Translations under genes and position numbers: made by a program
NCBI GenBank assembly: GCA_016715865.1
Contig: JADJXM010000006.1
Location: 65,486 to 129,485 of the forward strand
Length of the DNA stretch: 64,000 nucleotides
Reading direction: 5' to 3'
DNA from: Acidobacteriota bacterium
Lineage (GTDB): Bacteria; Acidobacteriota; Blastocatellia; RBC074
The notes under the pieces: generated by a model
What the model saw: the letters and a program-made list of their open reading frames with translations, nothing else
What the model was told of the DNA's origin: nothing
Databases searched by the model: none
Shown here: positions 5,718-61,356 of the stretch, piece after piece
Numbering within the stretch: position 1 is the first letter of the stretch
How the letters are laid out: every line of letters begins with the position of its first letter

Positions 5718-5820
5718 GAGTTGAAAGTAGAAAGTTGAAAGTCAGAGCGCTTGAGGCCCGGGCGGGTTTCTAACCACCGCCGAATCGCGGTTCATACTTT
5801 CAACTTTTAACTTTCAACTT
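5718..5820. repeat. Hairpin element A1: arms gttgaaagtagaaagttgaaagt / actttcaacttttaactttcaac around a roughly 50-nt core
   Basis: Inverted tandem heptamers (GTTGAAA/AGTAGAA) between the lipoprotein start and the decarboxylase stop. Confidence 0.7.
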
Positions 5821-8185: not shown

Positions 8186-8282
8186 TAGAAGAAGTTTCCA
8201 GCGGAAGAAGTTTCCAGTTTCCAGTGACACAAAGTTTCCTGTACCAACTGGAAACTGGAAACTTTCTCTCACTGGAAACTAC
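8186..8282. repeat. Hairpin element G2 (GTTTCCA-arm family)
   Basis: gaagtttccagtttccagtg ... cactggaaactggaaac. Confidence 0.7.
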
Positions 8283-9619: not shown

Positions 9620-11377
<1,758 letters not shown>

Positions 11378-11384
11378 GATTAAG

Positions 11385-11459
<75 letters not shown>

Positions 11460-11464
11460 AATGA

Positions 11465-12471
<1,007 letters not shown>

Positions 12472-19512: not shown

Positions 19513-20655
19513 ATGGCCAGATCAAAACAAGGATCAGTAGTCAGGCGGGGCAAGTTGATTTATGCCCGTATTCGATGGACGGAGCGAATAGGCAATCAAT
19601 CTGTCACCCGCGAGAAGCTTGAGAGAGTCATGACCATTTCAGAAGGCCGGGAACAATGCAAACAGATGTTGCGCGACCTGGAAGAGAAGGGACAGACCAT
19701 CTTCGAGACACAGCGAATGACCTTCAACGATCTGGCCATGATTTACTCTGAAAGAAAACTCATTCCTGCCCAGTATCACGATGACAGGAAGATTGCAGGC
19801 TTGCGCTCCCTGGCGTCTGCAAAAGTCCAGATGCGATCACTTCAGGCTTACTTTGGGACATTCACTTTGAAAGAGATCACCCATTCAGACCTTGAACGAT
19901 TCAAGCTTCTGAGACTGGGAAAGACGACCAGGCGCGGATCGAGGCCGTCAATCGCAACCGTAAACAGGGAGCTTGAGCGAATGCGGGCCATGCTTCGATT
20001 TGCCGTCCGTCAAGGCTATCTTTCAAAATCGCCCTTTGAAATGGGCGAGTCACTTATCAGCAAAGCCGATGAACGAATGAGAGAGCGATTATTAACCATC
20101 GAGGAAGAGTGCCGATTGATTGAAGCTTGCACCGGCAACCGCGCACACTTGCGGCCTATTATCATTTGCGCGATTGATACGGGGATGAGGCGCGGCGAAA
20201 TCTTGAAATTGAAATGGTCTGATATGAGCCTGGATGATGGCATCATTAAACTGAGAGCGACCACAACAAAGACAGGGAAGCGGCGAATTATCGGTATCAC
20301 ACCCAGGCTTGAAGCCGAGCTTCACGGCCTTTGGGATCAGAGCTTGATGATTGATGAAGCTCTGGTCTTTGGAATCAAGAGCGATATCAAGAGATCGTTT
20401 GCGACCGCTTGCAGAATCGCGGGAATCAGCGATTTACGCTTTCATGATCTAAGGCACAGAGCAAGCCTTGATTTATTGCAGGCGGGCTTGTCCGAAGAAT
20501 TAGCGATGAAGATTCTAGGCCATACTCAGAGATCGACTTTCAGCCGGTATATCAACCCGGATCATAGAATTGCAAGAGAAGCGGCAAAGGCATTGGAAGT
20601 CTTACAGACCGCAAGAAATCAAGAGCGCATACATGAAAAAAGTAAATGTGCATGA
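19513..20655 (+). CDS. Tyrosine-type site-specific recombinase/integrase
   Basis: C-terminal catalytic box R...HDLRH...Y (RFHDLRHRASLDLLQAG...STFSRYINPD). Confidence 0.85.
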   Translation: MARSKQGSVVRRGKLIYARIRWTERIGNQSVTREKLERVMTISEGREQCKQMLRDLEEKGQTIFETQRMTFNDLAMIYSERKLIPAQYHDDRKIAGLRSLASAKVQMRSLQAYFGTFTLKEITHSDLERFKLLRLGKTTRRGSRPSIATVNRELERMRAMLRFAVRQGYLSKSPFEMGESLISKADERMRERLLTIEEECRLIEACTGNRAHLRPIIICAIDTGMRRGEILKLKWSDMSLDDGIIKLRATTTKTGKRRIIGITPRLEAELHGLWDQSLMIDEALVFGIKSDIKRSFATACRIAGISDLRFHDLRHRASLDLLQAGLSEELAMKILGHTQRSTFSRYINPDHRIAREAAKALEVLQTARNQERIHEKSKCA

Positions 20656-21175
20656 GCCTGAAGCGGCTTTATATCTGGTTTACTCATATCAGAAAGCTGA
20701 ATTTCATCAGGCTTTAGAAAAAGCAATTTTGAGTGCATACAAGAAAGAATCTCCCAAATCACCAATCAAAGTACTGGACACTGAAAAAGCCATCATTTCA
20801 ATTAAACGAGTCTTGAGGGAGTTTTCGGCAAGCAACAAAAAGCGGGGAAGAAAAACGGATCAAAGAGCAATAAAAGCAGACAGCTATTTCAAAGTCGCAC
20901 TAGAAGATGCCAAGTTGACAATGGCCAAATTTAAGCTAATGGACAATCAAAGCCGTCAAGAGTTTTGGGAAGAAAAAGTCTGGCAAAAGCACGAACGCGA
21001 AATAATCGAAGACGAATTATTTTTCGATGGCAGTAAAGCCCTTGTAAGAGGAAAAGATGCTTTATTGACTGAAAAGCGAAGGATCGAGGATTTAGTCAGA
21101 CGATGGAACATGGCGAAGCCACGGCGAGCAATGAAAAGAAAAGGTCAACCACGAATAAATTCTGAAAAGAAATAA
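20633..21175 (+). CDS. Hypothetical Lys-rich protein
   Basis: ORF only, AT-richer codon usage. Confidence 0.3.
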   Translation: MKKVNVHEPEAALYLVYSYQKAEFHQALEKAILSAYKKESPKSPIKVLDTEKAIISIKRVLREFSASNKKRGRKTDQRAIKADSYFKVALEDAKLTMAKFKLMDNQSRQEFWEEKVWQKHEREIIEDELFFDGSKALVRGKDALLTEKRRIEDLVRRWNMAKPRRAMKRKGQPRINSEKK

Positions 21176-21244
21176 TTCGCCGAATAAATTCAAGTCCGTA
21201 ATTTATTCGCCTTCATTTTTGGTAAGGTCGAAGTCGGAGGGATC

Positions 21245-21697
21245 GTGACGATGAAGAGAAACGGAATCCTGACAATTCGAAGAATGAAGGAATGCGAGAT
21301 CAACCGCCTTACTGGTAAGGAGTCTTGCAGGGAAGTAAACCCGAAAAAGGTTATGACCCTTCAACAAGCCGAGACCGCAAAGCAAAGAGCCGAGCGTTTC
21401 GCCTTGAATGTCCTTCGAGATGAAGACCTGGCTGATGACATCGCCGATGAAAGTCTTGAAGACTGGATCGAGCGCAAGGGCATCACAATCAAAAACCCGC
21501 AAAAGGAGAATAAACCGATGGCAACAAGACAGCCTTCAAAAGCCGACCTCGAAAACAAAATCGCCGAACTCGAAGAGGAATTGAGCGAGTACAAGGAACG
21601 CGAAGAGCAGATGTGTGAGCTTCTGGGGCTCGAACCGGAAGACGAAGATGAAGAGATCGAGGACGAAGACTTCGAGGAAGAAGACGAAGCCGCATAA
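21245..21697 (+). CDS. Hypothetical protein with coiled-coil and poly-acidic C-terminus
   Basis: ORF only. The C-terminus is EDEDEEIEDEDFEEEDE. Confidence 0.3.
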   Translation: MTMKRNGILTIRRMKECEINRLTGKESCREVNPKKVMTLQQAETAKQRAERFALNVLRDEDLADDIADESLEDWIERKGITIKNPQKENKPMATRQPSKADLENKIAELEEELSEYKEREEQMCELLGLEPEDEDEEIEDEDFEEEDEAA

Positions 21698-21712
21698 CGG
21701 GAGAGGTGGAAC

Positions 21713-22087
21713 ATGGCTTACTACACAGGATACTCAACGCCCGTTCCAGCCGATAAAACCGGTCATTGGTCAGACGTTGAATCTCTCCCTGGCGCATACG
21801 CCCCAGGCTTCGAATCTTCGCCTTATTACGTCGGGCCAGCCGGGGCGCGAACCTGGATACCAAACCAGCCTCAACAGCAGGCACAGCAACCGCCACAGCT
21901 TCAGGATCACCCTTCGACTTCTCAGGATACCTGTCTGGGTATGGGCCGGAATCGGATTACTTGTAGTTGTGATTCTGGTCAAGAAGAAATGACGATTGAT
22001 TTTACGGGGACATCTGCAAGTTTGCCGACTCGAAGATGTCCCCGCCCCCCCCACACCGATAGCAGCATCGGCGGGGAGAGATTCTAA
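21713..22087 (+). CDS. Hypothetical protein
   Basis: ORF only. Confidence 0.25.
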   Translation: MAYYTGYSTPVPADKTGHWSDVESLPGAYAPGFESSPYYVGPAGARTWIPNQPQQQAQQPPQLQDHPSTSQDTCLGMGRNRITCSCDSGQEEMTIDFTGTSASLPTRRCPRPPHTDSSIGGERF

Positions 22088-22478
22088 CACCTTCTCCCGC
22101 CTAAAGGTAGATACCTGGCCGATGTAGCCATCACTAAACTTTTACCAAGTATGCTCGAAGACCTTTTTCAATCTGACCCAGAATTAGCCTTGTATATCGA
22201 GCGTCAACGGTTTCAAGCGTCGATGCGCGATCAAAGCCGCTTCGAAAGCCTTAACGAAATTCTACCGCGAATGATGCAATCAATAATGCCTGACGCCGTT
22301 TCGACCGAACCGGAAGAGGGCATGGCTTTTTATCAGCTTGGATGAAGGCCGCGCATTCGATTATCAACCGGACGCTATCCGGTATTGATTCGATCACGGC
22401 GCGGGCCTTCATTCGGATTGACTGCGGAAAAATCGCGGCCTTTTCCGGGACTATTCCGGTAATCATCGAGGAAAAACT

Positions 22479-22904
22479 ATGACCACAAAAACGAGACAGA
22501 CCAGGAGCCGCAATAATGCAGATCAGAAGAACAAGGGCGAAATCGTTTCCTTCGATGTCTTCCTTAGTGAAGACCCATTCGAGGCGGGCAAGGAATCGAA
22601 GAAAGAACCCCTGGGGCCGATCACCTTCAGTCAAAACTATCTGAAAGACGCAGCGCAGCAATTCGGCGGCGGCGAATATTACTACTTCCTGCCACGACAT
22701 GCAGACGGGAGTTTCGGAACCGGCAAGACTCTTTTCTGTCCCAAAGTCGATCAAGAAGCCATCGAGGAGCCATTGACCGAGGATTACATCGAGGCCGAAA
22801 CAATGACCGGGCCGGATATCCGGCGAATTATCCGCGAAGAGATGTCATCGAGCGTCCGCAATCCTCAAAACGGGCATCATTCCTCAACATCATCGAGCTT
22901 GTGA
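22479..22904 (+). CDS. Hypothetical protein
   Basis: ORF only. Overlaps the next ORF as ATGA, which suggests an operon. Confidence 0.35.
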   Translation: MTTKTRQTRSRNNADQKNKGEIVSFDVFLSEDPFEAGKESKKEPLGPITFSQNYLKDAAQQFGGGEYYYFLPRHADGSFGTGKTLFCPKVDQEAIEEPLTEDYIEAETMTGPDIRRIIREEMSSSVRNPQNGHHSSTSSSL

Positions 22905-23566
22905 CGGCCATAGAAAGAATTGAAAACATGACCGCCGAAGATGAACCCAGGGATAAAACATCTGAGATCATCGGAACTCTGAAAGGGCTTGAAGAGATCA
23001 GAGGAATGTTTTCATCCAGGGAAGAGAACCCCAGGCCGATTATCGAGAACAAACCACTGACGACCGAGGCCGCATTGTTGAAGCTTATATCTGAAGACCC
23101 TATCGCCCTGGCCGCAGCCCGCGATCGTCTCTTAGGAAGCGAAGGCGAATCGTTTAGTTTCATGCAGCTCATACCCGCGATCATGCCAACCGTGGAAAGA
23201 ATCGTCTCTTCGATCACTGACGCGATGAAGGCCGCGAATCCGTCACCGGCGATAAATCAACCGGCGACCATTCCGCAGCCTGGCGGCGATCAGCCATCAC
23301 CCGCGACAGCCTTCAATCCCACGCAGCCGCCACAAGCGCAAGCACCCGGCGATCTGAGCATGCAGGCGGCATACGGGCGGGTTTTTAATTCCTTCCTCAA
23401 CGCCCTGGCGACGAATGCAGACGTTGAACCTATCGTCACCGCCTTTGATTCATTCTGCAATCTCTTTCCAGAGCATGAATTGATGATCGATGGCTTGATG
23501 ACACAACCGCCTGAAATGGTCATCGGATTTTTGAATCAGGCTTTGCCACAGGCCGCGAATGTTTGA
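22901..23566 (+). CDS. Hypothetical protein (Pro/Gln-rich linker)
   Basis: ORF only. Confidence 0.35.
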   Translation: MTAIERIENMTAEDEPRDKTSEIIGTLKGLEEIRGMFSSREENPRPIIENKPLTTEAALLKLISEDPIALAAARDRLLGSEGESFSFMQLIPAIMPTVERIVSSITDAMKAANPSPAINQPATIPQPGGDQPSPATAFNPTQPPQAQAPGDLSMQAAYGRVFNSFLNALATNADVEPIVTAFDSFCNLFPEHELMIDGLMTQPPEMVIGFLNQALPQAANV

Positions 23567-23675
23567 ATGCGCCGCATGCCATCGATTGGATCAAGAGACT
23601 TCAGGAAGCATACACGAAGGAACCGGACGGGCAGCCTGACGCTGAACCGACCGAAGCAATGAAAGGGGCTGCTTC

Positions 23676-24292
23676 ATGAAAGTCATCATCGGTGCGGGCG
23701 GATCGAGTCAACCTGGATGGATCAGCTTCAATCAAGACGACCTGGATATAACCAGGCTTACAGACTGGGCGAAACATTTTTCAAAGGCATCTATTGATTG
23801 CATTGTCGCCGAACATGTCTGGGAGCATTTGACGATGGAGCAAGGATTCATCGCAGCGGTCAATTGTTGGCTATATCTCAAGCCTGGCGGAAATCTGAGA
23901 CTGGCAGTCCCAGACGGCCTTCATCCAAGTTTCAATTATTTCAATTGGGTGAAGCCTGGCAATTGGATCAATGGAGACGACCACAAGGTTTGTACACGTA
24001 CCGAAGCCTTGAGGGAATCCTCAAAAGGGCATTGTTTCAATGCACCTTGAAAGAATACTTCGATGAGGCAGGGGAGCTTCATATAGACCCCTTGGACTAT
24101 GACCGGGGATATATCCGGCGATCAGGGTTTAGCCTTTGGGCCGGAATTTTAAGCCCGATCGTTGGAACGTGGTTTACGTCTCTTGTCATTGATGCTCGAA
24201 AAATGGGGATGGAAGAGCTTTGCCAGGCGACAGGGATGAAGCGTGCAAGCTTCAGGCGTTTCGATTTTGATTTAACGACACCTGGGATATAG
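23676..24292 (+). pseudogene. Class I SAM-dependent methyltransferase (Methyltransf_11/23-like), frameshifted
   Basis: ORF 23676..24050 carries the AEHVWEHL...YLKPGG motif II/III region. The expected C-terminus (LYTYRSLEGILKRALF...) continues in the +1 frame (ORF 23798..24292). Confidence 0.4.
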
Positions 24293-24344
24293 GCCGCGAC
24301 CTAAAAAACGAATAGCGGCCAATTCTGGCGAAATTTTCAGGCAA

Positions 24345-24395
24345 AAGAAAACCGCCTGCCGAGTTTTCGAGAAGCGGCAAGCGGTTTTAAAGGAA
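24345..24395 (+). terminator. Terminator-like hairpin
   Basis: aaaaccgcctgccgag...aagcggcaagcggtttt: a GC-rich stem flanked by A/T runs. Confidence 0.3.
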
Positions 24396-24501
24396 TAAGC
24401 TATGGCAAATAATACCACACTCTTAGAAACCACCACAAAAGAAAACAATTCTCATCGAAGACCAGATACCAACCGCCGACGAATTATTCGGGCCTTCATC
24501 A

Positions 24502-26066
24502 TTGCCACAATCTAATTGGAGTCTATCCATGGAGATGGCAAATCGGGAGAGCCTCCGGTTATTAAGAACTGCTTTGGATGACCCTGAAGGAGTTGGATTA
24601 CCCGCACCTTTTTACAATTTCGAGACACCTGATTTTCCATTGAACGCCATGCCTCCGTGGTTGAAAGCCTTTGTTGAAAAATTAGCCGCATCATCTCAAA
24701 CGCCTGTTGACCTGGCCGCACTCTTGAGTCTTGCGGTCTGTAGCGCGTCAGTTGCTCGAAACGTACGGATCGAAGCCCGGTCAGGATGGGAAGAGCCTTT
24801 AAATATTTTTGCAGTTGTCGCATTGCCACCGCAAACAGAAAAAGCCATGTCACATCAGAAGTGACAAAGCCTTTAATACAGTTTGAAAAAGAGTTGATCG
24901 AGTCTCAGTTGGATAAAATTGCAATTGAAAAAAGCGAGTATCGAATCTTAGAAAGCGAATTAGCCGAACTTGAAAAGAGATGCGCGAAGGCCAAGCCCGA
25001 AGATCAACCAAGCATTAAACAAGAGGCGAAAGCTAAGGCTAAGGAATTGTCAGCGCGAAAATTGCCTGTCTTGCCAAAGCTCATTGTTGATGACGTGACC
25101 GCCGAAGTCTTAGCCTCAATCCTGGCTGAACAAAAAGGGCGTGTCGGATTATTCAGCGCGGAAGGCGGCATCTTCGATACATTGGCCGGGCGATATTCGA
25201 ACGGCACTCCGAATTTTGATGTATTGCTCAAAGGGCACTCAGGCGATGATCTGAGAGTTGATAGACGTGACCGATCTGAACACGTTGGAAAACCAGCTTT
25301 GACAATTGGTCTGGCTGTCCAGCCTGAAGTATTACGTGGCTTGATTGATAAACCAGGCTTTCGAGGCCGCGGACTGATAGGACGCTTTCTTTACTCAATC
25401 CCGCAAAGCACTATCGGAAAGCGGAAAATACGACCGACCCCGATGAATGACGAGATTGCTCGATCCTATCAGCAAAACATTTACCGCCTGGCAGCAATCG
25501 AGCCTTTTGTGAACGACTACGGAGAAATCGAACACAGGTTGATTCGCCTCTCAAAAGATGCAGATGATTATCTTGCAGCCTTTGAAGAAGAGATAGAGCC
25601 AATGTTAGGCGAAGATGGAGACCTGGCCTTTATTGGAGACTGGGGAGGGAAACTTGCGGGCGCGACCGTCCGTCTGGCGGGCATTTTGCACCTTGCAGAA
25701 AACGCAGGGAACCTTCGCCCGAAATGGCCTGGCAACGTTTCAGCCGAGACCATGAAAAATGCAATTGCGATATCCAGATATCTACTGCCACATGCGCGGC
25801 TGGCTTATGCAGAAATGGGGGCCGATCCGAAAATCGAAGATGCGAAGTATGTACTTCGATGGATTAAAAGAACCGGATTACGCGAGTTTACGGAGCGTGA
25901 CGCATTCGAGGGGACTAAAGGCCGCTTTAAGCAAGTAGCAGGTATAAGACCGGCACTGGAAGTTTTAGAAGATCATGCCTACATTCGCCCCGAAGAAGGC
26001 GCAATAGAAAGACGCCGAGGGCGAAAATCAAGCCCGAAATACACAGTAAATCCAAACTTCAACTAG
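24502..26066 (+). pseudogene. DUF3987-family (P4-type primase-associated) protein, frameshifted
   Basis: An N-terminal DUF3987-like segment ends ...VVALPPQTEKA*. The rest continues in another frame. Restoring one base in the A5 run (acagaaaaagcc) would give PPQTGKSHVTSEV, a Walker-like motif. Confidence 0.45.
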
Positions 26067-26161
26067 CCGTCGCACAATTCGCACAATTCGCACAATTCAG
26101 TAAATTTTGTGCGAAATAGCGAATTGTGCGAATGTGCGAATTGTGCGACGGGTTCTTAGTA
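26067..26161. repeat. Hairpin element C: (CGCACAATT)x3 arms
   Basis: ccgtcgcacaattcgcacaattcgcacaattc ... gaattgtgcgaatgtgcgaattgtgcgacgg. Confidence 0.7.
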
Positions 26162-26211
26162 TTACAATTTTAGATAATTATTAATAAGCACTTATTTTCT
26201 AAGGTTGCCTG

Positions 26212-26559
26212 ATGGACAAAAATCAAGTCGAAATCTTCAAGAATATTGACAAGGCGACCGAACATTTTCACGCACTGATTGACGCTTTGAATGTCGTCTC
26301 GAAAAGGCTGATTGCACCCTGGCTTGAATCCCTGAGAACCGATATCGAGATCAGGCAGTCATCGAGAGAAATAAAAACACAATCGAGACTAATGACCGTT
26401 AAAGAGACTGCGGATTATTTACAGGTCCAAGAAGGAACGCTTCGAGTCTGGGCCAACCAGGGCGAAATTCCAACCAGGCGAATTAAATCTGAAATCCGAT
26501 TCGACCGCCGAGAAATTGACGAATGGTCTAGGCTAAATATTCACACCTGGCAAAAGTAA
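26212..26559 (+). CDS. Excisionase-family helix-turn-helix DNA-binding protein (Xis/AlpA/MerR-like)
   Basis: LMTVKETADYLQVQEGTLRVWANQGEIPTRRI...RFDRREIDEW matches the excisionase HTH pattern. Confidence 0.55.
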   Translation: MDKNQVEIFKNIDKATEHFHALIDALNVVSKRLIAPWLESLRTDIEIRQSSREIKTQSRLMTVKETADYLQVQEGTLRVWANQGEIPTRRIKSEIRFDRREIDEWSRLNIHTWQK

Positions 26560-26617
26560 GCCGTGATAAACTTGGGCCGCTTCTTCTTCCTGCGGCCACA
26601 TCGAAGGAGCATTGAGA

Positions 26618-27684
26618 AATGGGCGTTTTCATGCGCGACCCTCAAACCGGGCGAAAATGTAAAAAAGGTCAAAAGGGAATCTGGTATTACTACTTCACGA
26701 TTAAAGCCGTCGATATCGAGCGGCCATTCCCGGAAGCACAAAATAAAGAGTCAAGCTCTGGCGGTCGAGGCCAACGCAAGAAAGGCCGTCTTTGATGGTA
26801 CATATGGCCGTAAGGAATCAGGCCGGGCCAGCTTCGCAGAATTTATTCTTGGCGAATATATGACCTAGGCGAAGGACCATAAAAAGTCATGGCGATTCGA
26901 TCATTACATCGCACCCAAGGCGGCAAGGTTTTTCAAAGGCAAAAAATTTTGTGATGTGACAGTCAAAGAGATCGAGAAGTTTCGAGACACAAGATTGTCA
27001 GAGATCACAAAAAGAGGCTCGAAGCGAAACGGGAATAGTGTTTGTCGCGAAATGGCCATGCTTTCAAAAGTCTTTGACCTGGCTATCAAAAAAGACTACT
27101 GCGAAGAAAACCCCGTCGGAAAAGTCGAATGGCCGCATCAACCAAACCGGCGAGAACGATTTATTACCGAAGAGGAAGAATCCAAAATCTTTAAGTCTTT
27201 GTCCGGGCGCTATGAAAGACTGCGACCTGTTTTCCTATTGGCTCTTTATTCGGGATTGAGAAGGGGAGAGATTTTCGCCCTTCAATGGCGAGATGTAGAT
27301 TTTGAAAAGAAGAATCTTCGACTGAGAGCGGAGACCACTAAAACAAGCAAAGGGCGCAATGTGCCTTTGATAGAACCAGCTTTCTCTATTTTAGCCAAGT
27401 TGAAAAAATCAGTTGATGGTGAACCACATGAAAAAGTCTTTCCTTTCGGGGCAAGCCGGGCTTGTGCATTGTTTCGAGAAATTTTGGATCACTTAGGATT
27501 GATAGATGTTGGTCTTCACGTCCTAAGACATACCTTCGCGACAAGAGGCATGAGAGCCGGAATACACCCGCTTGTAATGAAAGACATACTTGGACATTCA
27601 ACCATCGACATGACCGCATATTATTCTCACACAGGCCGCGAAGACTTACTGAGAGAGGCCAAAAAGCTGGAAAAATCTGTCTAA
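26618..27684 (+). pseudogene. Tyrosine integrase, decayed (one frameshift plus an in-frame TAG)
   Basis: The N-terminus MGVFMRDPQTGRK..GIWYYYFTIKAV is integrase-like. The frame shifts near 26745. In-frame TAG at 26866-26868 sits where W is expected (EYMT*AKDHKKSW). The C-terminal catalytic domain HVLRHTFAT...YSH is intact. Confidence 0.7.
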
Positions 27685-27740
27685 ATGCCTCTATAGAGCC
27701 TCTTGGGTAAAGAATATTTGGCTTTTTTCTTGGAATTGTC

Positions 27741-27767
27741 AAAATTCACTTTACACAAAGTGTCAAC
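27741..27767. repeat. Candidate attR-like direct repeat partner
   Basis: aaattcactttacacaaagtgtcaac, lying 57 nt past the decayed integrase. Confidence 0.4.
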
Positions 27768-27913
27768 ATGAGTCGGAGTGACAGACACAGAGATTTCTCT
27801 TGCCTGATCAATCAATTCTGAGTACTATTTAATCTGCCTCATTAAATTTATTTGCCCAACAACTCTGTCACTGACCTTGCTCCTCACCGAACCCCCGTAG
27901 AAAGATCTCAGCC

Positions 27914-28768
27914 ATGATTCGATCATTGTTTCTAGTTTGCAGCCTGTTTATACCGACAGGAACCTACGCGCAACAGCCTTTGACGAACACCGACGTGATT
28001 TACCTGATGAAATCAGGATTTTCTGAGGAAATAATAATTGCCAAAATCAGATCAGGCGGTGGAAAGTTTGATACGTCCACATCCGCTTTGAAAAATCTGA
28101 AAGATGCAGGCGTTCAGGAATCAGTCATATTGGCTATGATCGAGACTGAATCACCCGCAAATACGGAACAAGTTGAGAGCGCACCTCTAGTCAAAATGCC
28201 TTTGAATTTGAATGAAATTCTTTTGAAGGACGGAACCCGAGTTGAGTTGGAATTGGCTTATACCGTCTCTTCAGAAAACCTCAATGAAGGTGATGCAGTC
28301 AGTTTCCTTGTCGTTCAGCCGGTGATGGTTAATGGCCTGACGGTCATCGATCGGGCAGCTGCCGCTACAGCCAGAGTCGTGAAGGCCGAGGGCGGTAAAA
28401 GCTGGGGTCGTGGAGGTCAGCTGACATGGGCTATCCAACACGTCTCTGCGGTTGATGGAACAAAAGTGCCGCTCCATTTTACTTCGCAGACCAAAGGCGG
28501 AGGCAAGCCTGGCACTGTCACGACTGGAATCGTTGTCACCGGATTGCTTTTCTGGCCCGCGGCTCCGCTATGGGGTTTCAAGAAGGGTAAACCGGCAGTA
28601 ATTCCAGCAGGTAAACGGTTTGAAGTGTTCGTTCATGGCGACATAACGATCATGACTAATCAGGTAGAGACGTCATTGCCAATTCGCGAACCCCGAAAGC
28701 AGCCGTTGCCGGCGGCAAAACCTAAAAACCGTTGTTATGAAAATGGAAGGAAGGTGCCCTGTCCATAG
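27914..28768 (+). CDS. Hypothetical secreted protein
   Basis: Signal peptide, with no recognisable family. Confidence 0.35.
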   Translation: MIRSLFLVCSLFIPTGTYAQQPLTNTDVIYLMKSGFSEEIIIAKIRSGGGKFDTSTSALKNLKDAGVQESVILAMIETESPANTEQVESAPLVKMPLNLNEILLKDGTRVELELAYTVSSENLNEGDAVSFLVVQPVMVNGLTVIDRAAAATARVVKAEGGKSWGRGGQLTWAIQHVSAVDGTKVPLHFTSQTKGGGKPGTVTTGIVVTGLLFWPAAPLWGFKKGKPAVIPAGKRFEVFVHGDITIMTNQVETSLPIREPRKQPLPAAKPKNRCYENGRKVPCP

Positions 28769-28818
28769 TTGAGTTCGCACTAAACTGTCGAGTAACTTTT
28801 ATATCAGATTATTTTTCT

Positions 28819-29655
28819 TCACAGGCGATATTCCGTTTTTAGTTGCAGGAGGTCAGATTCAAACTGATTGGCCATTGCGTATGTATACACGCGTGTGATG
28901 TCACCATTATGTTGAAAGTCAATGATCTTCCGTAGATCGCTTTTACGCTGCTTCCAGGTAAGACCATCCGTAAAAAATAAAAAAGTCGTATCAGGCCGCT
29001 TGGCATCAATGATGGTTCTGATATCTCCCAGAATATCAGTCATCTTTGAACCCGTCGCTCCGTAACCTTTCGACTCGATCAGAATACGGGGGGCGCTTTT
29101 TGTAGGGATTGCAAAATCGCACTTCGCATCTTTTCCAGAACGCCCTGAAAAAGTACAACGCGCTTGATAATTTTCTCCAAAAACATTTTTAACGATAGCT
29201 TCTACGAAGTCTTCTACATCGCGCCCGCGTTTCTGGCCGGAAATTGCGCTTCCACGTCCACTACGCAGTCTTTCCACCAAAACATCACTCCAGTGCAGCT
29301 TTCGATTGGCTTCGTTAACCATGGCCTCCAAAAGACCGGTAGAGAGGAGATCTTTAATGAATTGTTCGGGATTTGCCTTGTAGCTTTTGACGCCAATTCC
29401 CTGGTCTGAACGAATCCCCTTCATTACAGAAACAAACTGGTCTTTCGAGAAACCCAGGAACAACCGACATATCAGTAAGCCATCATCAAAATTTTCATCA
29501 AGAAGCGCTTTCACATCCTCAATTGTATAAGCCTTTTTTTGTGAAATTAATTTGATCCGTTTGATGATGCGGAATGCCGTTTCGTCCTTCCACTCGACGG
29601 TAAGCGGTCTCAGGTTATTGACGATTTCGTCGAGACTTTGTGCAATTACTTCCAT
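28819..29655 (-). CDS. Type II restriction endonuclease (DpnII/MboI-like, probably GATC-specific)
   Basis: About 278 aa, immediately downstream of and abutting a Dam-family methyltransferase. Size and context fit the DpnII family, but identity was not verified by motif. Confidence 0.45.
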   Translation of the reverse strand: MEVIAQSLDEIVNNLRPLTVEWKDETAFRIIKRIKLISQKKAYTIEDVKALLDENFDDGLLICRLFLGFSKDQFVSVMKGIRSDQGIGVKSYKANPEQFIKDLLSTGLLEAMVNEANRKLHWSDVLVERLRSGRGSAISGQKRGRDVEDFVEAIVKNVFGENYQARCTFSGRSGKDAKCDFAIPTKSAPRILIESKGYGATGSKMTDILGDIRTIIDAKRPDTTFLFFTDGLTWKQRKSDLRKIIDFQHNGDITRVYTYAMANQFESDLLQLKTEYRL

Positions 29656-30783
29656 TCATTGTCCCACGATCAAGTATTCATGTACTTCGGCACGTACAAC
29701 GTTTTGATGAGTCCCGAAATGATAGCGATGTGGTTTCTCGTACAGAGTGACTCTTTTCTTGTAACGGCTTAAAAGATCTTCTAATACATCCTTGTCAGGG
29801 AAACCGTTGGAGCTATATGAGAGAACGATAGTGCTGTTGCGGTATAGTTGAAAAAGCTTGTCAAAGGCTTCGATCGCCGTTTTTCTATAGCTGAATGGCG
29901 TATAGGGTTTTTCGATTTTCTTAACTTTTGTGCTTTCCATGATCCGAAGTCCTTGCCAATAACAAGAAAGACCTTCCAGAAAGTGATATCGCTTAACGTA
30001 GCAGTTGTCATCCGAGCGCGGCACATATGGCGGATCCAAATAGACCAGATCAACACCCTCTGGCTTTAATGTAAAAACGTCTGCTCGTTTTACTATATTC
30101 TGGCGACCATTATCGAAAACAACCCGGTTGAATGTCTCGATCTGTTCAAGAAAATGTTCTTCGATAGAAAGCTGCAGATCCCGTCGACCATCGTCGTAGC
30201 GAGAGAGATCACCCGAAACCGTGAAGACACCACGAGGCTGCTTCTTCAAGCAAGAACGTATCAGAGCAGCGCGGGCAAGGGCACGCTGATGGTCATGTTC
30301 GAGTTTATCAAGATTATTGGAAACACGGTCCAGGAACCCCAGATCTTTGGCGGTATAGAAGATTCCTTTGAATGTTTTTTGGATGAAATTGGAGCTGTTT
30401 TTTGAAGGTGTGAGCAACTTGTCCACTGCCGGACCAGCGAGCTGATACTTACTATTTTCAACTGTCGCCATTGCCAAAACTGTTGGGAAATTCAGAAAGT
30501 CTGAAGCGATTACACTCTTGCCCATCGCCTTCAGCAAATAGGCTACACATCCGCTTCCGACAAACGGATCCGCAGCTGTCTCGAAGTCGAGAGTGCGAAA
30601 GACGCCATGAATCCATGGTAAAAGTCTGCGTTTGGAACCCATGTAGCGCAGTTCCGGATACTCCAAGACCAGCCTTGGAAGAGGGGTATCAATGATCTCT
30701 TCATGATTGATGGCGCCACTCACCTGTTCATTGGATTGCCGCGTAAAAAGAGGCATTTGAATTCCTGATCTTGGAGACGCCAT
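29656..30783 (-). CDS. Dam-family (D12 class) N6-adenine DNA methyltransferase
   Basis: Motif I RYMGSKRRLLPWI and motif IV DPPY. Confidence 0.8.
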   Translation of the reverse strand: MASPRSGIQMPLFTRQSNEQVSGAINHEEIIDTPLPRLVLEYPELRYMGSKRRLLPWIHGVFRTLDFETAADPFVGSGCVAYLLKAMGKSVIASDFLNFPTVLAMATVENSKYQLAGPAVDKLLTPSKNSSNFIQKTFKGIFYTAKDLGFLDRVSNNLDKLEHDHQRALARAALIRSCLKKQPRGVFTVSGDLSRYDDGRRDLQLSIEEHFLEQIETFNRVVFDNGRQNIVKRADVFTLKPEGVDLVYLDPPYVPRSDDNCYVKRYHFLEGLSCYWQGLRIMESTKVKKIEKPYTPFSYRKTAIEAFDKLFQLYRNSTIVLSYSSNGFPDKDVLEDLLSRYKKRVTLYEKPHRYHFGTHQNVVRAEVHEYLIVGQ

Positions 30784-30853: not shown

Positions 30854-33187
30854 TCAAAACTCTATCCTTCCGCCGATGATCGGGATCAGAGTCCGTTCGC
30901 GCAGGAAACCGGCCGTCCCGCTTCCCAGCCGGTAATTGACATCGACGACATTGGTGTATTTCGTCAGATTGAAGATATCGACGTAAGGCGAGAAGGACCA
31001 GCGCCTGAAATCGAAGCGGCGCTCGACGCGCAGATCGAGTTGGAAGAAGTTCGGCAACCTCAGAGCATTCCTGTCTTCAGGCCGCAACAGTTCAAACAGT
31101 GTCACTCGCGGAGGCTCGTTGAAAATCACAGGCGTCAGATTCGAGTAGGCGAGACCGCTCGCGACGCGCATTTTTGAAGCGAGCAACCATTGTCCCCAGA
31201 GCTTGATGCGGGTCAGGCCGATCAGCGTCAACTGGTGCGGGCGAGCGACTTCTGAAGGAAAAGTGAACCCTTCGGGTGTGAAACGCCTGCGGGCGCGCGT
31301 CCAGGAGTACCCCGCCTGACCGGCGAATCTTCCAGACAATGCCTTCTGAGCGGTGACTTCGACGCCCTGGACATCGGCTTCCCCAGTGTTAAGGTACCGC
31401 GGCGAGGTGCGTGTCGGTTGGACCAGCAGATCGTAGTAACTCTTACGATAAGCCTCGACTGTGACACGCACATCTTCACGCGCCAGCCATTCGATTCCGC
31501 CGATAGCGTGGACCGAGCGCTGCGCCTTGAGCGTGCGATTTTCCGGAGTTAACGCGAGCAGAAAGCTGGGAGGCGGCTGGCGATAGAGGCCCGCGGCCAG
31601 ATTGAGGGCGAAACGCGAACTGAGCCGGATGCGCGCACTTGCTCGCGGGCTGATCAGAGTCTGCCGCGTGACGCCGTACCTGTCGAAGCGCACGCCGGGC
31701 GAGATCGACAGTCGACTTGTCGCCTGCCATGTCGCCTGGGCATAGGCATAACCATTGACGGTCGAATCGATGCGCAAATGATGTTCGCGCGTCGGAGCTC
31801 GATACTCTTCGCCGATAGGGCTGTATCCGACGGGCGAACGCTCGAATGTATAAATGTCGCCCTGCTGGACGATCAGTGCTCCACCAGCCGCCAGATTGAC
31901 GCGCGGACTAAATGCGGTCGTCAACTCCTGCTTGATGCCGAACTGCGATTCGCGCAGGTCACGCCGGCGCTGCAGCGTGGTCCGATCGATGCGCAGAAAG
32001 CTGCCGTCATTGTGTTCGCCGATGCCCCAGGCTGTAATGTTCGAAAGCGTGCGATCTCCGAGAGTCGAGCTTAGCGTGGCGCCGGCGATGTAACGCTTGC
32101 CGGTACGTTCGCTGATCAACTGATCACGACGCGAAGCTCTTTGCGCGGTCTCGAACGGAACGGTGATGCGCTCGGCGAAGGTCATCGCCGTCAGTGACAA
32201 TTTGTGCCGCGGAGCCAGATCGACGTCTATCTTATTAATAACATCCAGATTGCGCGGCTTGCCGATATCGCCCAGATCGAAAAGCTCGAAGGCCAGGTCG
32301 ATGTAGCTGCGCCGGATTGAGACAAACCAGCCGGCGCGCGGCCCGAGCGGGATTTCGACGCTCCCGCCGGCTACGCCAGAATCCGCAAAGAGACTTCCCT
32401 GCACCCTGTCGCGCGTCGCTTTGCGAATGGTGATGTCGAGTGCGGAAGACATCCGATCGCCATAGCGCGCGCCGAATCCTCCGGCTGAAAATTCCAGGCG
32501 GTCAAAGACGTCCGGCGCCAGCAGCGCCGCTCGCCCTCCGCGACCGTTGTCGTATTGATCGGAAAAATAGGTGAAGTCGCCGATGGGGATGTTGTCGATG
32601 AAGGTCAGATTTTCGCTGGGGAAACCACCGCGCACCAGCAGGTCGCCAAACTGCGCCGAGTCGGCGGTCACTCCGGGCAAAGACGAGATGGCGCGCAGAG
32701 CATCGCCTCCCGTGCCGGGCAGCGATCGCAGCTCGGCACGTCGCAGCGTCACGTTGCTGATCGGCTGATCCGTCGTTTGAACATAGTATCCGCTGCTGAC
32801 CGTCATCTCTTCGGAGACCTGCAGGTCCAATCGCACATCGTAGATCGAAGTGTAACGGGCCGTAACCGTGATCAGTCCGATGATGAGTGGAGCATAGCCC
32901 CTGGCCTTCACTCGCGCCGCCCAGGTTCCGGGCGGAAGCTCCAGCCTGTAGCGACCTTCCTCATCGGTGACGGCTTCAGTCCGGTCAGCGATGGCGATTA
33001 CAGCGCCGGCGACCGGCTGTCCGCTGACGCGTTCAGTGACCTGACCGGTCACGGTTCCAGATTGAGGCGAAGGGTTCTGAGCGCCCGCGCTGGCGACTGC
33101 CGCGAGCATCACCATCGCGACCAGACAGGACTTTACCGGGAGATCCATAATCTGACTGCATACTCTGCCAACTAAATTTTCTGACAT
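30854..33187 (-). CDS. TonB-dependent receptor with N-terminal carboxypeptidase-regulatory-like domain
   Basis: Signal peptide, a CarboxypepD_reg-like Ig domain (VTGQVTERVSGQPVAGAVIA), a plug, and a C-terminal barrel ending in aromatic F. Confidence 0.8.
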   Translation of the reverse strand: MSENLVGRVCSQIMDLPVKSCLVAMVMLAAVASAGAQNPSPQSGTVTGQVTERVSGQPVAGAVIAIADRTEAVTDEEGRYRLELPPGTWAARVKARGYAPLIIGLITVTARYTSIYDVRLDLQVSEEMTVSSGYYVQTTDQPISNVTLRRAELRSLPGTGGDALRAISSLPGVTADSAQFGDLLVRGGFPSENLTFIDNIPIGDFTYFSDQYDNGRGGRAALLAPDVFDRLEFSAGGFGARYGDRMSSALDITIRKATRDRVQGSLFADSGVAGGSVEIPLGPRAGWFVSIRRSYIDLAFELFDLGDIGKPRNLDVINKIDVDLAPRHKLSLTAMTFAERITVPFETAQRASRRDQLISERTGKRYIAGATLSSTLGDRTLSNITAWGIGEHNDGSFLRIDRTTLQRRRDLRESQFGIKQELTTAFSPRVNLAAGGALIVQQGDIYTFERSPVGYSPIGEEYRAPTREHHLRIDSTVNGYAYAQATWQATSRLSISPGVRFDRYGVTRQTLISPRASARIRLSSRFALNLAAGLYRQPPPSFLLALTPENRTLKAQRSVHAIGGIEWLAREDVRVTVEAYRKSYYDLLVQPTRTSPRYLNTGEADVQGVEVTAQKALSGRFAGQAGYSWTRARRRFTPEGFTFPSEVARPHQLTLIGLTRIKLWGQWLLASKMRVASGLAYSNLTPVIFNEPPRVTLFELLRPEDRNALRLPNFFQLDLRVERRFDFRRWSFSPYVDIFNLTKYTNVVDVNYRLGSGTAGFLRERTLIPIIGGRIEF

Positions 33188-33205
33188 TTAGATCTGGAAG
33201 AAATT

Positions 33206-33366
33206 AATCGCAAAGCCGCAAAGCAGGCAAAGATTGCTGTAATATCATGCCGCCAAAGGGCAAAGATTTATGGTGATATTAATATCCGAATTATTGCCCA
33301 CTTGGATATAATTCGAAAACTGATCTTCCCTCTATATCTTTGCCCCTTTGCGGCCTCTGCGATTAA
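33206..33366. repeat. Element K1: GCAAAG-repeat inverted arms around a conserved, roughly 95-nt core with an internal hairpin
   Basis: About 88% identical to 48712..48920. The core is ggtgatattaatatccgaattattgcccacttggatataattcgaaaactgatcttccctctatatctttgcccctttgcggcc. Confidence 0.7.
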
Positions 33367-33452
33367 CTTTTTTCCAGTCTTGAATACAAGAAAATTTAGT
33401 TAACAAAGTGTTAAAGTTCTTTGAAATCACAGGAAGATTTCTTGCCATTGAT

Positions 33453-35345
33453 TCAATTGATTCTGATGCTGACAGTATTCGCCTGCTGACCGTCGACGGT
33501 CAATCCGACATCGACCACGCCGCGATTGATAAGAGCCCTGTCGAGGCGGATGTTGGCCTGATCCAGACCGATGAGAGTCGGATGCGCCCCCAGAAACGTC
33601 ACCTGCATCGAAGACCCGCCAACCATGGCGGAAACATTGGCCAGCGCACTGCGGTAGCGGAATCCGGTTCCGAACAGAATCAGAAAAACCTGATCCGTTT
33701 CAGGGCCAAGGTCGATCGGAAGAGCTACGAATTGATTGCTCGCCTGATCGAAAGTGATAACCGGTTCGAAGCTCTGCGAACCATCGGAACGGGTTCTCTG
33801 CACGACAGCGGCGGCGACTCCGCGGCCGTTGGCATTTGCGCTGAAGACCGACGGCACGACGGTCGCGATATTGATGGCGCTGCTGAAAGCGGCGCCGAAA
33901 ACTATGTCATTCCTGAAATTTATGGTCGCATTGCCAGGGGCTGTCCCGGGGGGAATCTGGAAGTTGACCTGATCGGGCGAAACGAAGAAGAGTGAAGCCG
34001 GACGATTGCTCCCGAGCGCATCGATGACGCTGACGCTTGCGCCGGCGAGCGTCGTCGGCAAAGCCTGATTTGCCGGCGCTGACTGCGTGGTCGAAGCCAG
34101 TCCGGAACCAAAGGCCGCGACGATCGATTCGGCGGCAACCTGCGCTCCGGCATAATTGGCGGCCGAAACGACCGCTGCCGTCCCCGGCAGGGCCAGCCGG
34201 TAGATTCCGCCGTTGATATCGATGACGTAGATTTCTCCAGACTCATCCTCGGCGAACGACGAGATCAGGAAACTGGTGTCGCGGAGCAAACTCATCGTGT
34301 TGTTGTTCCAGAGAAATATCTCTCCGGTGCAGTAATCGGCGAAAACATAGCTGCCGGCGGGCAGTGTCCCTTTCGTACCGCGATAGACATACCCTCCGGT
34401 GACTGAGCAGCGATTGTTCGAATGGTCGTATTCGATCAGCGGGGCGATGAATCCCGGAGCCGTGCATGACGCCGGGCCGAGGCCGGTGCAGCGAGTCCCT
34501 TCGAGCACTCGCCAGCCATAATTGCCGCCCAGTGTGATCAGACTGACCTCTTCGCGCTGGCCCTGTCCGACATCGCCGGCATAGAGCTGCCCCGTTTGCC
34601 GGTCGAACGACCAGCGCCAGGGATTTCGAACGCCGACCGCGTAAATCTCATCAGCTCCCGGCGTCGATCCGAAGAACGGATTGGTCGACGGCGAAGAATA
34701 CGGCACATTTCCATTCGGCGTATCGACATCGATACGCAGCATCTTGCCCAGCAGGTTATTGATGTCCTGCGAACGGTCGCCTGGATCGTTGGCCGAACCG
34801 CCGTCTCCCATGCCGATGTACAGAAACCCGTCAGCCCCAAAATCGATCATCCCCCCGTTGTGATTCGAAAACGGCTGGGCGATCGTCAGAATGATCTTTT
34901 CTTCAATATCGGCCACATTCGGATTCGCAACCGAGGCCTTGAATTCAGAGATGACAGTTGCGCCGTCGCTGCGACGTGTGTAGTTGACGATAAAACGCCG
35001 GTTGTTCGCGAACTGAGGATGAAATGCGAGACCGAGCAGGCCGCGCTCACCGCCAGAGCCGACCTTCGTAACGATATCGAGAAAAGGTGTCGGCAGCGGA
35101 GCCGCCGCACCGGGTAACATGACCAGAATCCTGCCCGGTTGTTCGATGATGAAGAACCGGTTGCTGCCGTCGTGCGCGCTGGTTGCGAAGACAGGCGAAT
35201 TCAATCCTTGCGCCACAGGAATAAGCTGAATCGTCGCCTGGGCTGAAACAGTCCGCTCAACACCATCCGGTGAAAAACTGAAGAGAGACGACAACCCACC
35301 GATCAATAAAAATAGAATGAATATACGAATGAATAATCTGTTCAT
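33453..35345 (-). CDS. PQQ-dependent soluble sugar (glucose/sorbosone) dehydrogenase with C-terminal Solibacter-type (TIGR03437-like) domain
   Basis: Signal peptide [17 protein letters not shown] and the GSDH beta-propeller motif [30 protein letters not shown]. The C-terminal roughly 200 aa is an Ig-like tail. Confidence 0.65.
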
Positions 35346-35352
35346 GGTCCCC

Positions 35353-35432
35353 CCCTGGGAGCGCAGGCTTCCAGCCTGCTTTTTTTGGCTAATAGTGAAA
35401 TTCAAGCAGGCTGGAAGCCTGCGCTCCCAGGT
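35353..35432 (-). terminator. Perfect 28-bp inverted repeat (hairpin) immediately downstream of selB
   Basis: cctgggagcgcaggcttccagcctgctt / aagcaggctggaagcctgcgctcccagg with a 24-nt loop that contains a T7 run. Confidence 0.4.
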
Positions 35433-44338: not shown

Positions 44339-44385
44339 ATTTCATTCAAAACAGGCAGAATAAAGGAGACGTGTAAATAGTTTGT

Positions 44386-44518
44386 GGTTTCCAGTTTCCA
44401 GCATCCAGTTTTCAGAAGATTGCCCCTTTCTTTGCATGCGTTCTGAAAACATTGAACTGGAAGTTGCCCCGCAGGTATGTCAATCCTCCGGAAACCGGAA
44501 ACTGCAGACTGGAAACTT
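44386..44518. repeat. Hairpin element G3 (GTTTCCA-arm family, compound)
   Basis: ggtttccagtttccag ... ccggaaaccggaaactgcagactggaaac, with an inner inverted repeat ccagttttcagaa/ttctgaaaac. Confidence 0.65.
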
Positions 44519-47707: not shown

Positions 47708-47852
47708 TAGAGTTTCCAGTGGTAGTAGTTTCCAGTTTCCAGTATTCTGAATGGCGCACAGTTAATTTCAGAGAGCAAGGTTGTGACGGGTATTGAAAGC
47801 GGATATAGAGAAGCCACTGGAAACTGGAAACTTCTTCTTCCGGAAACTATTC
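47708..47852. repeat. Hairpin element G4 (GTTTCCA-arm family)
   Basis: gagtttccagtggtagtagtttccagtttccagta ... ccactggaaactggaaacttcttcttccggaaac. Confidence 0.7.
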
Positions 47853-48577: not shown

Positions 48578-48711
48578 TCGTGGCCCGTCCATACTCGGAA
48601 AAATAATTGGCGCGAGCAGCTCACGCTTCTGCTCGCGCCTTAATTTTTGGAGAATATCGATGCACCTGTATAGACGATGTGAGATCGTTTTTTTTGCCCG
48701 AATAGAAAAAA

Positions 48712-48920
48712 TAATCGCAAATCGCAAAGGAGCAAAGGAGCAAAGGAGCAAAGATTTTAAATCGCAGGCCGCAAAGCGGCAAAGAATTTTTGGTGATATG
48801 AATATCCGGATTATTGCCGACCGGATATAATTCGAACACTGATCTTCCTTATATATCTTTGCCGCTTTGCGGCCTTTGCGATTTAAAATCTTTGCTCCTT
48901 TGTGACCTTTGCGATTAAAT
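48712..48920. repeat. Element K2: second copy of the conserved core with (GCAAAGGA)x3 arms
   Basis: See K1. The arms aatcgcaaaggagcaaaggagcaaaggagcaaagattttaaatcgca... are mirrored by ...tgcgatttaaaatctttgctcctttgtgacctttgcgatt. Confidence 0.7.
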
Positions 48921-56677: not shown

Positions 56678-56724
56678 AACTGGAACGCCAACCTCCGGTC
56701 GGCATGCTTACACAATATTGATAA

Positions 56725-59184
<2,460 letters not shown>

Positions 59185-61081: not shown

Positions 61082-61356
61082 CAAGAAGCTGACATTATAC
61101 ACTACGCGCCACTTTGTTCAACCAATGCCGCCGTTGAAGAAGATCTTCCTTGAAAACGGATATCACTAGGCATATCATGCATTTAGATTTTTACCAATTT
61201 TATTGGCGTTCAAACCTGTCTACCGGTGGGCCTGGTTCGGAAAGGCGAGGATGATGGCTGAATAGAGGTGTTGATACAACCGCGTAGCGTGGATCGAGCA
61301 TCGGAGAGAGCGCAAAGTGTCAAAATTTCGCTCGCAATCATCCGGGAGTTTTTTCT

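Follow-up and report, generated by a model that had tools for sequence, protein, structure and literature searches.

Two intergenic elements in a 64,000-nucleotide stretch of an Acidobacteriota genome (GenBank assembly GCA_016715865.1, contig JADJXM010000006.1; the whole stretch is referred to here as the window) raise the question of why a conserved, asymmetric core should be carried between long inverted arms built from GCAAAG-type units. The original prediction, made from these two copies, read an apparent compensatory base-pair change in the core as the signature of a selected secondary structure, and offered three options: a mobile hairpin resembling a miniature inverted-repeat transposable element (MITE), a small RNA, or a terminator/attenuator family. 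Six copies and one divergent variant, unrelated neighbouring genes, proximity to stop codons and turnover between genomes bear out the first of these options together with a family in terminator position, while the selected core fold has to be given up. The elements belong to a real hairpin-forming, multi-copy repeat of approximately 130 bases that is found in two closely related uncultured Acidobacteria; the covariation signal vanishes once more copies are added, and the finding does not amount to a new structured RNA. The family is young, dispersed at gene 3' ends and subject to turnover between sister genomes. Its members are probably, at somewhat better than an even chance, lineage-specific dispersed non-coding palindromic repeats of a MITE- or REPIN-like kind, sitting in terminator position in an uncultured Blastocatellia-like lineage.

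The likeness of the two window elements is confirmed by blastn, which aligns 33266-33364 with 48786-48883 on the same strand over 99 nt at 88.9% identity (E=3e-24). No third copy is found within the 64-kb window by blastn, nhmmer or a covariance model. Both elements are surrounded by inverted arms of GCAAAG units as originally described, and GCAAAGNNGCAAAG occurs eight times in the window, always in one of the two elements, against an expectation of 0.31. The limits first given for copy 1 (33206-33366) do enclose an element and are too narrow, the outer palindrome spanning 33162-33409. The parts of the two copies are as follows.

33162..33203, no strand: outer left palindrome layer of copy 1, AACTAAATTTTCT...CTGGAAGAAA, pairing with 33368-33409.
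33204..33366, plus strand: repeat unit of copy 1, 163 nt, TTAATCGC...GCGATTAA, recognised by regular expression and alignment, nhmmer (E=7e-37) and covariance model (120 bits).
33267..33337, plus strand: asymmetric core of copy 1, with overlapping alternative 8-bp stems at 33282-33289/33302-33309 (AUAUCCGA/UUGGAUAU) and 33287-33294/33308-33315.
33367..33409, no strand: outer right palindrome layer of copy 1, CTTTTTTCCAG...AGAAAATTTAGTT.
48712..48757, no strand: extra outer left arm of copy 2, TAATCGCAAATCGCAAAG(GAGCAAAG)x3 ATTTT, recognised by direct and inverted repeats and by folding.
48758..48885, plus strand: repeat unit of copy 2, 128 nt (covariance model, 143 bits).
48786..48856, plus strand: asymmetric core of copy 2, with stem A at 48802-48809/48821-48828 (AUAUCCGG/CCGGAUAU) and alternative stem B at 48807-48814/48827-48834.
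48886..48920, no strand: extra outer right arm of copy 2, a tandem second right arm 84% identical to 48855-48886.

The unit of copy 1 consists of a canonical 130 nt plus 33 nt (33214-33246) made up of a partial left-arm duplicate and a linker. Its outer layer is an inverted repeat of 42 nt with 74% complementarity, the left sequence of which recurs in a locus of a sister genome (L009, 7008-7040). The unit of copy 2 stands at the exact centre of its outer arms, and the junction (48741-48766/48877-48902) is 100% complementary. Plus-strand folding of the two regions gives -59.5 kcal/mol (z -7.3) for copy 1 and -107.3 kcal/mol (z -13.8) for copy 2, and the minus-strand folds are equally good (-68.1 and -105.7 kcal/mol, respectively).

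Further copies were sought with an exact 19-mer, GGATATAATTCGAANACTG, across 185,579 species, each represented by one genome. Nine matches were returned, of which four are true copies, all in a single metagenome-assembled genome (MAG), CAZBPH01/GCA_964493645.1 (loci L001, L003, L005 and L009); the other five lie by chance inside unrelated sequence. The family thus counted comprises two window copies, four CAZBPH01 copies and one divergent variant in the same MAG (L019), at non-orthologous sites. The canonical unit is 130 nt long, with a left arm TTAATCGCAAAG-GCCGCAAAG-GGGCAAAGA, an asymmetric centre of approximately 70 nt and a right arm TCTTTGCCC-CTTTGCGGC-CTTTGCGATTAA. The consensus arms are 30 nt each, perfectly inverted, and contain three CGCAAAG-type units of about 9 nt. 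Additional palindromic layers frequently surround the unit, either GGAAGAAA/TTTCTTCC or extra arm copies, and both L005 and copy 2 carry a tandem second right arm. Pairwise identity among the copies is 86-97%, the differences are mostly private to one copy (a star-like pattern), and conservation barely differs between core (92.2%) and arms (89.8%).

All four of these additional copies came from the exact scan: nhmmer and the covariance model, run over all 189 kb of window and retrieved loci of relatives, found no additional full copy, only a generic hairpin in the relative L013 and the truncated L019 variant. Weak nhmmer matches at 27340-27470 and 61297-61418 fall in coding-like sequence and were rejected as family members. 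A scan of JGI metagenomes with AATTCGAANACTGATCTTCC gave two chance matches, both in unrelated sequence, and a scan of viral contigs gave a single chance match. No match was obtained by BLAST in plasmid and phage collections, by comparing a six-frame translation of the consensus with a set of 5.8 billion proteins, or by using the four proteins that flank the two copies as one concatenated query for orthologous sites of both. Exact-word scans detect the close subfamily only, so that rarity can be claimed for that subfamily alone. The unit is non-coding, with terminal inverted repeats and no conserved open reading frame (ORF); a small ORF (MNIRIIAHWI, 10 codons) was discarded as a candidate, copy 1 having ATT in place of its ATG. 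Literature searches found no publication on repeats of this kind in Acidobacteria or Blastocatellia.

The larger set of copies bears directly on the proposed RNA fold. The 8-bp internal stem does exist in both window copies, and it is present in every copy of the family, with 95.8% of cells paired. Nevertheless, the compensatory change attributed to it is not there: across the six copies, none of its eight pairs is altered on both sides, and shuffle controls equal the observation. The family state of the stem is CCGG/CUGG, which holds a G.U pair (consensus stem AUAUCCGG/CUGGAUAU), and copy 2 departs from it by a U-to-C change on one side only, turning G.U into G-C. What had been read in copy 1 as a G-C pair becoming A-U is a G-to-A substitution combined with a 1-nt T insertion that shifts the register. 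An A-to-U change breaks the stem in L001, and a C-to-U change produces a wobble in L009. RNAalifold favours another stem, CGGAUUAU/AUAAUUCG, which overlaps the first and cannot form together with it. This second stem has 100% of cells paired in the six copies and also tolerates the G-to-A change of copy 1 (G.U to A-U). Folded alone, the core gives z values of -0.5 to -2.8, no better than shuffles, and its minimum-free-energy folds use different internal stems in copies 1 and 2.

It could still be argued that the core is a structured RNA, be it a small RNA, a riboregulator or an attenuator, with a selected fold that the arms merely present. The core is indeed approximately 92% conserved between copies of two genomes, the 8-bp stem accompanies it everywhere, and its start, TGTTCGAATTAT..ATCCA, persists in a subfamily with GCCAAG arms in which every arm unit has changed. 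This explanation is nonetheless highly improbable. Besides the lack of any two-sided pair change, the complete retention of the mutually exclusive stem and the unremarkable folding of the core, the arms are conserved almost as well as the core. The orientation of the core with respect to the upstream gene is mixed, being sense in L001 and L009 and antisense in copy 1, copy 2 and L005, with L003 lying between divergent genes; two sense against three antisense copies argue against an oriented small RNA or riboregulator. A consensus scan detected no sigma-70-like promoter in the core; a weak outward TTGCCG-17-TAAAAT occurs solely in an arm of copy 2. The element matches no known family in Rfam, where the gathering threshold was passed by tRNAs only, and a permissive search returned generic miRNA-precursor hairpins scoring 20-44 bits where the cut-offs are 90-211 bits.

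The arms do contain some compensated cells, three in two pairs, a number reached by 4 of 500 shuffles. These are a T/A to G/C change in L005 and, in copy 2, a T/A to A/T and a G/C to C/G change. Template switching in quasi-palindromes can maintain arm symmetry at the DNA level, and a DNA palindrome would show such cells too. The asymmetry between G.U and A.C arm mismatches, examined as a sign of a hairpin acting at the RNA level, rests on few events and is inconsistent.

Five of the six copies lie less than 50 nt from a stop codon, at distances of 2-46 nt when the outer layer is counted. Copy 1 is flanked on one side by a GSDH-domain gene, from whose stop codon (33453) its outer right layer ends 44 nt away, and on the other by the start of a TonB-receptor gene. 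The likely start of the latter is the ATG at 33149, which is followed by signal-peptide-like sequence and stands only 13 nt from the outer palindrome, so that transcription of this gene has to arrive through the hairpin, from the GSDH gene, or else to begin inside the element. Copy 2 has convergent genes on its two sides, and 46 nt separate the end of its outer right arm from the stop codon belonging to a second TonB-receptor gene (48966). In the sister MAG, the outer layer of one copy begins right at the stop codon of the gene for a giant DUF11 protein, the unit of another is found 29 nt past the stop codon of a DUF4230 gene, and a third stands 2 nt past the stop codon of a PA14/PKD protein gene, with MscS next. 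The adjacency to TonB-receptor genes noticed at the outset is correct for both window copies and does not extend to the copies of the sister MAG, which adjoin unrelated genes, so the link is incidental. The rule that the element is always 3' of a minus-strand gene likewise describes the two window copies and fails for the others.

The carriers of the family are close relatives. SelB homologues place the window in a Blastocatellia-like part of the Acidobacteriota, and the SelB of the window is identical to MBK9314638.1 from an Acidobacteria MAG (450-kb contig). Exact look-ups of proteins encoded in the window, and of the identical SelB (P0121), returned no record. CAZBPH01, whose SelB differs from that of the window at 34 of 639 residues and which shares 12 kb of synteny with it at a median nucleotide identity of 95%, is by these comparisons a sister of the window genome. 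The record GCA_964493645.1, from which L001, L003, L005, L009 and L019 derive, is titled 'uncultured Heliobacteriaceae bacterium'; this label looks wrong, given a SelB identity of 94.7% with the Acidobacteria MAG and a 95% identity with the window over the 12-kb syntenic block.

In the sister MAG, the position that corresponds by orthology to copy 1 is reached by contig 126 (L019), and this site has turned over. The two genomes are near-identical through the stop codon of the GSDH gene and 40 nt beyond, and then diverge. L019 has two tandem left arms, CGCCAAGGA-CGCCAAGTT-TGCCAAGA, in which the hexamer is GCCAAG rather than GCAAAG; it shares the core start with the family, and its contig stops inside the element. 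The variant is approximately 72% identical to the reverse complement of the family consensus, has the same orientation as copy 1 and is detected only weakly by the covariance model (E=2.4). The orthologous position is thus approximately 72% identical amid flanks of approximately 95%, compared with 86-92% for non-orthologous copies of the two genomes, which points to replacement, conversion or re-insertion and not to simple vertical descent. In relatives with 76-85% SelB identity, the orthologous GSDH gene is followed by unrelated short spacers or by a different perfect palindrome. Distant relatives are without the element behind this gene, and the neighbouring gene differs there too. This comparison concerns copy 1 alone, copy 2 being more than 10 kb from the SelB anchor. 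Short-read assemblies break at such hairpins: a copy forms the end of L001 and the variant that of L019, while L012, L020 and L021, retrieved through SelB, stop at the palindrome corresponding to 35354-35431, short of the site of copy 1. With respect to the 85% relative L013, synteny with the window ends exactly at the GSDH stop codon beside copy 1, which places this copy near the boundary of a variable region.

These observations also permit an explanation without mobility, in which the elements are host terminator hairpins that have spread only together with gene 3' ends, by segmental duplication or domain shuffling, and have diverged rapidly by slippage and template switching. The copies do stand directly behind stop codons, as many other hairpins of the genome do, no target-site duplication is seen, and divergence between the sister genomes is greatest in the hairpin regions. 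Moreover, copy 1 and L009 follow genes with a homologous C-terminal domain (approximately 40% amino acid identity) and have a gene-proximal outer AACTAAATT..TCTT..ATTC.A.ACTGGAA in common. However, the remaining copies are behind unrelated genes, and copy 2 is seamlessly nested within another arm pair. Identities of 86-97% between non-orthologous copies against approximately 72% at the orthologous site, amid 95% flanks, are the opposite of what vertical descent predicts. Such an origin is accordingly considered unlikely.

The homologous C-termini merit a separate description. The last 200 or so residues of the GSDH protein (33453-34100) are approximately 40% identical in amino acid sequence to the C-termini of a DUF11 protein of 2259 residues and a TIG-domain protein of the sister MAG, encoded at L009 6320-7007 and L003 204-720. 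All three genes are directly trailed by a long hairpin, and the one at L003 1-200 has (CACGAAG)n arms.

The nesting of copy 2 raises a further possibility, namely that the unit of 128-130 nt is a discrete insertion element whose target is the TTAA/TA apex of hairpins already in place, and that the outer layers are host terminators. Copy 2 occupies precisely the midpoint of an outer GCAAAG hairpin (GATTT|TA...TA|AAATC), copy 1 is centred in an outer 13+10-bp palindrome, and T(T/A)AA bounds both sides of five of the six units. However, four independent sites have the flanks GGAAGAAA/TTTCTTCC in common, which therefore look like part of the element, L005 ends in TGAA/TTCA, a palindromic TTAA is indistinguishable from an extension of the inverted repeat, and no empty hairpin of the GCAAAG type is seen in the window or the retrieved loci. 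Targeted insertion of this kind is regarded as quite unlikely.

The GCAAAG family is part of a wider class of hairpins at stop codons. Other window hairpins have (AGTTTCC)n arms (2150-2300, 8195-8285 and 47711-47848), (AGTAGAA)n arms (5719-5819, 11285-11377 and 11467-11598) or (CACAATTCG)n arms (26067-26151), each with inverted arrays of 7-9-nt units around an asymmetric spacer of 20-90 nt. Perfect palindromes of 25-32 bp without tandem units also occur directly past stop codons, at 426-514, 35354-35431 and 56681-56749 in the window and at 1-41 and 13472-13536 in L013; the sequence of the L013 palindrome recurs at its contig end, so that it constitutes another repeat family. Long hairpins of the window mostly start 0-10 nt after a stop codon, and occupy three of nine convergent gaps, at least seven of 40 tandem gaps and none of eight divergent gaps. 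The sister MAG and relatives further removed have similar hairpins, AGTTTCC- and AGTAGAA-armed ones being found at L017 17614-17684 and L003 6564-6686, and between the sister genomes hairpins are not only the most divergent but also indel-rich segments.

Several individual hairpins of this class were recorded in passing. A tRNA gene (11385-11458, minus strand) has an (AGTAGAA)n hairpin on either side (11285-11598), and the loop of the palindrome at 426-514 holds CTGGAAGAAATCAG, which resembles an outer flank of the GCAAAG family. Around 35455, the sister genomes (L019/L012) have 52 nt more between the SelB and GSDH genes; this segment holds a single arm (GGAACGCCGACCTCCGGTCGGCAT) of a palindrome found in full at 56681-56749, and is thus an insertion/deletion polymorphism of yet another repeat. 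The hairpin at 44340-44500 differs from that of the sister by a 24-nt indel and a change in unit number. In L016, a relative at 77% SelB identity, a hairpin with 38-bp arms of GGCAAAAAA/GGCAAGAAG units lies behind a kinase gene (11998-12079); it is reminiscent of the GCAAAG arms and has no core in common with them.

The regularity of the arms could alternatively mean that the tandem units are a binding-site array for a DNA- or RNA-binding protein (a nucleoid or recombination protein, or a post-transcriptional regulator) and that the hairpin is secondary. In favour of this are the strict periodicity of the units (8-9 nt), the occurrence of other unit types, AGTTTCC, AGTAGAA and CACAATTCG, in window hairpins, the presence of AGTTTCC-armed hairpins in the more distant relative L017, and the proposal that intergenic heptamer direct repeats of other phyla are regulator sites (PMC4679880). 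However, many unit sequences in one genome are a poor fit to one protein, the units are always inverted, giving perfect stems, and there is no candidate protein. A binding array is thus very unlikely.

The explanation preferred here remains that of MITE- or REPIN-like repeats in terminator position. Such a non-autonomous element would spread, or replace its relatives, through mobilisation in trans or through recombination and gene conversion between hairpins, and its propagation would prefer the apex of hairpins already present at gene 3' ends. Slippage would alter the number of arm copies, and arm symmetry would be maintained by selection on the hairpin or by template-switch correction. The core would owe its conservation to the youth and shared source of the copies and not to a selected RNA fold. 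When transcribed from either strand, the RNA would have the layout GGAAGAAAUUAAU[25-60-bp stem]AUUAAUUUCUUCC, in which the stem is bracketed by A-rich sequence on its 5' side and U-rich sequence on its 3' side; these brackets on both strands make a bidirectional terminator, or a hairpin protecting the 3' end, the most likely predicted function.

A number of results weigh against this explanation. The duplication of a target site, which was looked for as a check on mobility, is not demonstrable: T(T/A)AA is found on both sides of five of the six units, the exception, L005, has TGAA...TTCA, which is an inverted and not a direct repeat, and, the TTAA/TA ends being palindromic and the flanks beyond the unit being inverted repeats again, a duplication is inseparable from the inverted repeat. 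No empty site, no autonomous insertion sequence (IS) with the same ends and no transposase was found in the window and approximately 190 kb of loci. Pfam scans of 31 ORFs from the window and loci revealed no Y1 transposase; two phage-type integrases were found. A loop of approximately 70 nt and the moderately U-rich tail AUUAAUUUCUUCC are atypical of intrinsic terminators, and a consensus terminator scan found a small sub-hairpin in copy 1 only and nothing for the copy 2 element. The two convergent neighbours of copy 2 each have a terminator-like hairpin of their own (48609-48650 and 49000-48974), so that copy 2 is not needed as a terminator. L003 lies between the divergent starts of PMT glycosyltransferase and FMN_dh genes. 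Finally, 12 uncompensated cells in the arms outnumber the three compensated ones.

A bolder version of the preferred explanation would see the elements as self-propagating 'terminator cassettes' that home past stop codons, with 7-9-nt arm units in concerted evolution and a core kept across arm subfamilies by a machinery that reads it, for example a recombinase, an RNA-binding factor or a transposase of the guide-RNA type. This is a speculative proposal and decidedly unlikely.

The phage-type integrases are part of a probable integrated mobile island (19513-30783). The integrases are encoded at 19513-20655 and 26956-27684, a DUF3987 gene at 24786-26066 and an excisionase-like HTH_17 gene at 26212-26559, and 28819-30783 encodes a DpnII-like endonuclease and a D12 adenine methyltransferase.

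Hairpin MITEs that act on transcripts are represented by the Correia elements of Neisseria, the ERIC/IRU elements of Yersinia and other Enterobacteriaceae, and the pneumococcal RUP and BOX elements. MITEs of the Correia, ERIC and RUP type and the GCAAAG family are alike in being approximately 130-250 nt long, non-coding, multi-copy and intergenic, with long terminal inverted repeats, a long hairpin in the transcript and a tendency to break assemblies. The GCAAAG family differs from them in lacking a partner transposase or IS and any target-site duplication that could be demonstrated, and in its variable number of 8-9-nt arm units, its palindromic wrapping layers and its almost exclusive location just past stop codons.

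Repetitive extragenic palindromic (REP) sequences and REPINs are palindromes mobilised by RAYT tyrosine transposases, often forming inverted doublets with a conserved spacer and carrying GTAG or CGTC at the palindrome end (PMC3733652). They share with the GCAAAG family an extragenic position behind genes, the formation of a larger hairpin from palindromes and tandem reiteration, and roles in termination and mRNA stabilisation have been proposed for them (PMC3733652). In contrast, the ends of the GCAAAG unit, TTAATCGCAAAG/CTTTGCGATTAA, carry neither GTAG nor CGTC, the arms are not imperfect palindromes of 20-40 nt, no RAYT gene is present in the sequence examined, and the copy number is apparently low.

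The TAACTGA heptamer repeats of Beggiatoaceae, Cyanobacteria and Bacteroidetes are intergenic direct arrays located mostly upstream of start codons (PMC4679880). These and the cyanobacterial STRR heptamers resemble the GCAAAG family in that units of 7-9 nt are arrayed between genes in varying numbers, with several unit types per lineage; the GCAAAG family is set apart by inverted arms, by hairpins just past stop codons and by a conserved non-repetitive centre. Inverted repeats are enriched just past stop codons across bacteria, and this has been ascribed to intrinsic termination (PMC13155455). Intrinsic bidirectional terminators and the GCAAAG family have in common a position 0-60 nt past stop codons or between convergent genes and A-rich/U-rich brackets on both strands. 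Unlike such terminators, the GCAAAG elements have a stem of 25-60 bp, a loop of approximately 70 nt in place of 3-8 nt and only moderate U-richness, and they constitute a repeated sequence family.

The GCAAAG family and the wider class of hairpins mark gene 3' ends, break short-read assemblies and create hotspots of divergence between near-identical genomes, and annotators and builders of MAGs should therefore mask or exploit them. The exchange of GCAAAG for GCCAAG arms at one orthologous site offers a case for studying the turnover of palindromes. If it is true that the hairpins terminate transcription in both directions, a terminator function would be provided in this lineage by a spreading repeat. 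Should the core indeed be kept across arm subfamilies, this would imply an unknown machinery that reads the core, rather than the simple youth of the copies.

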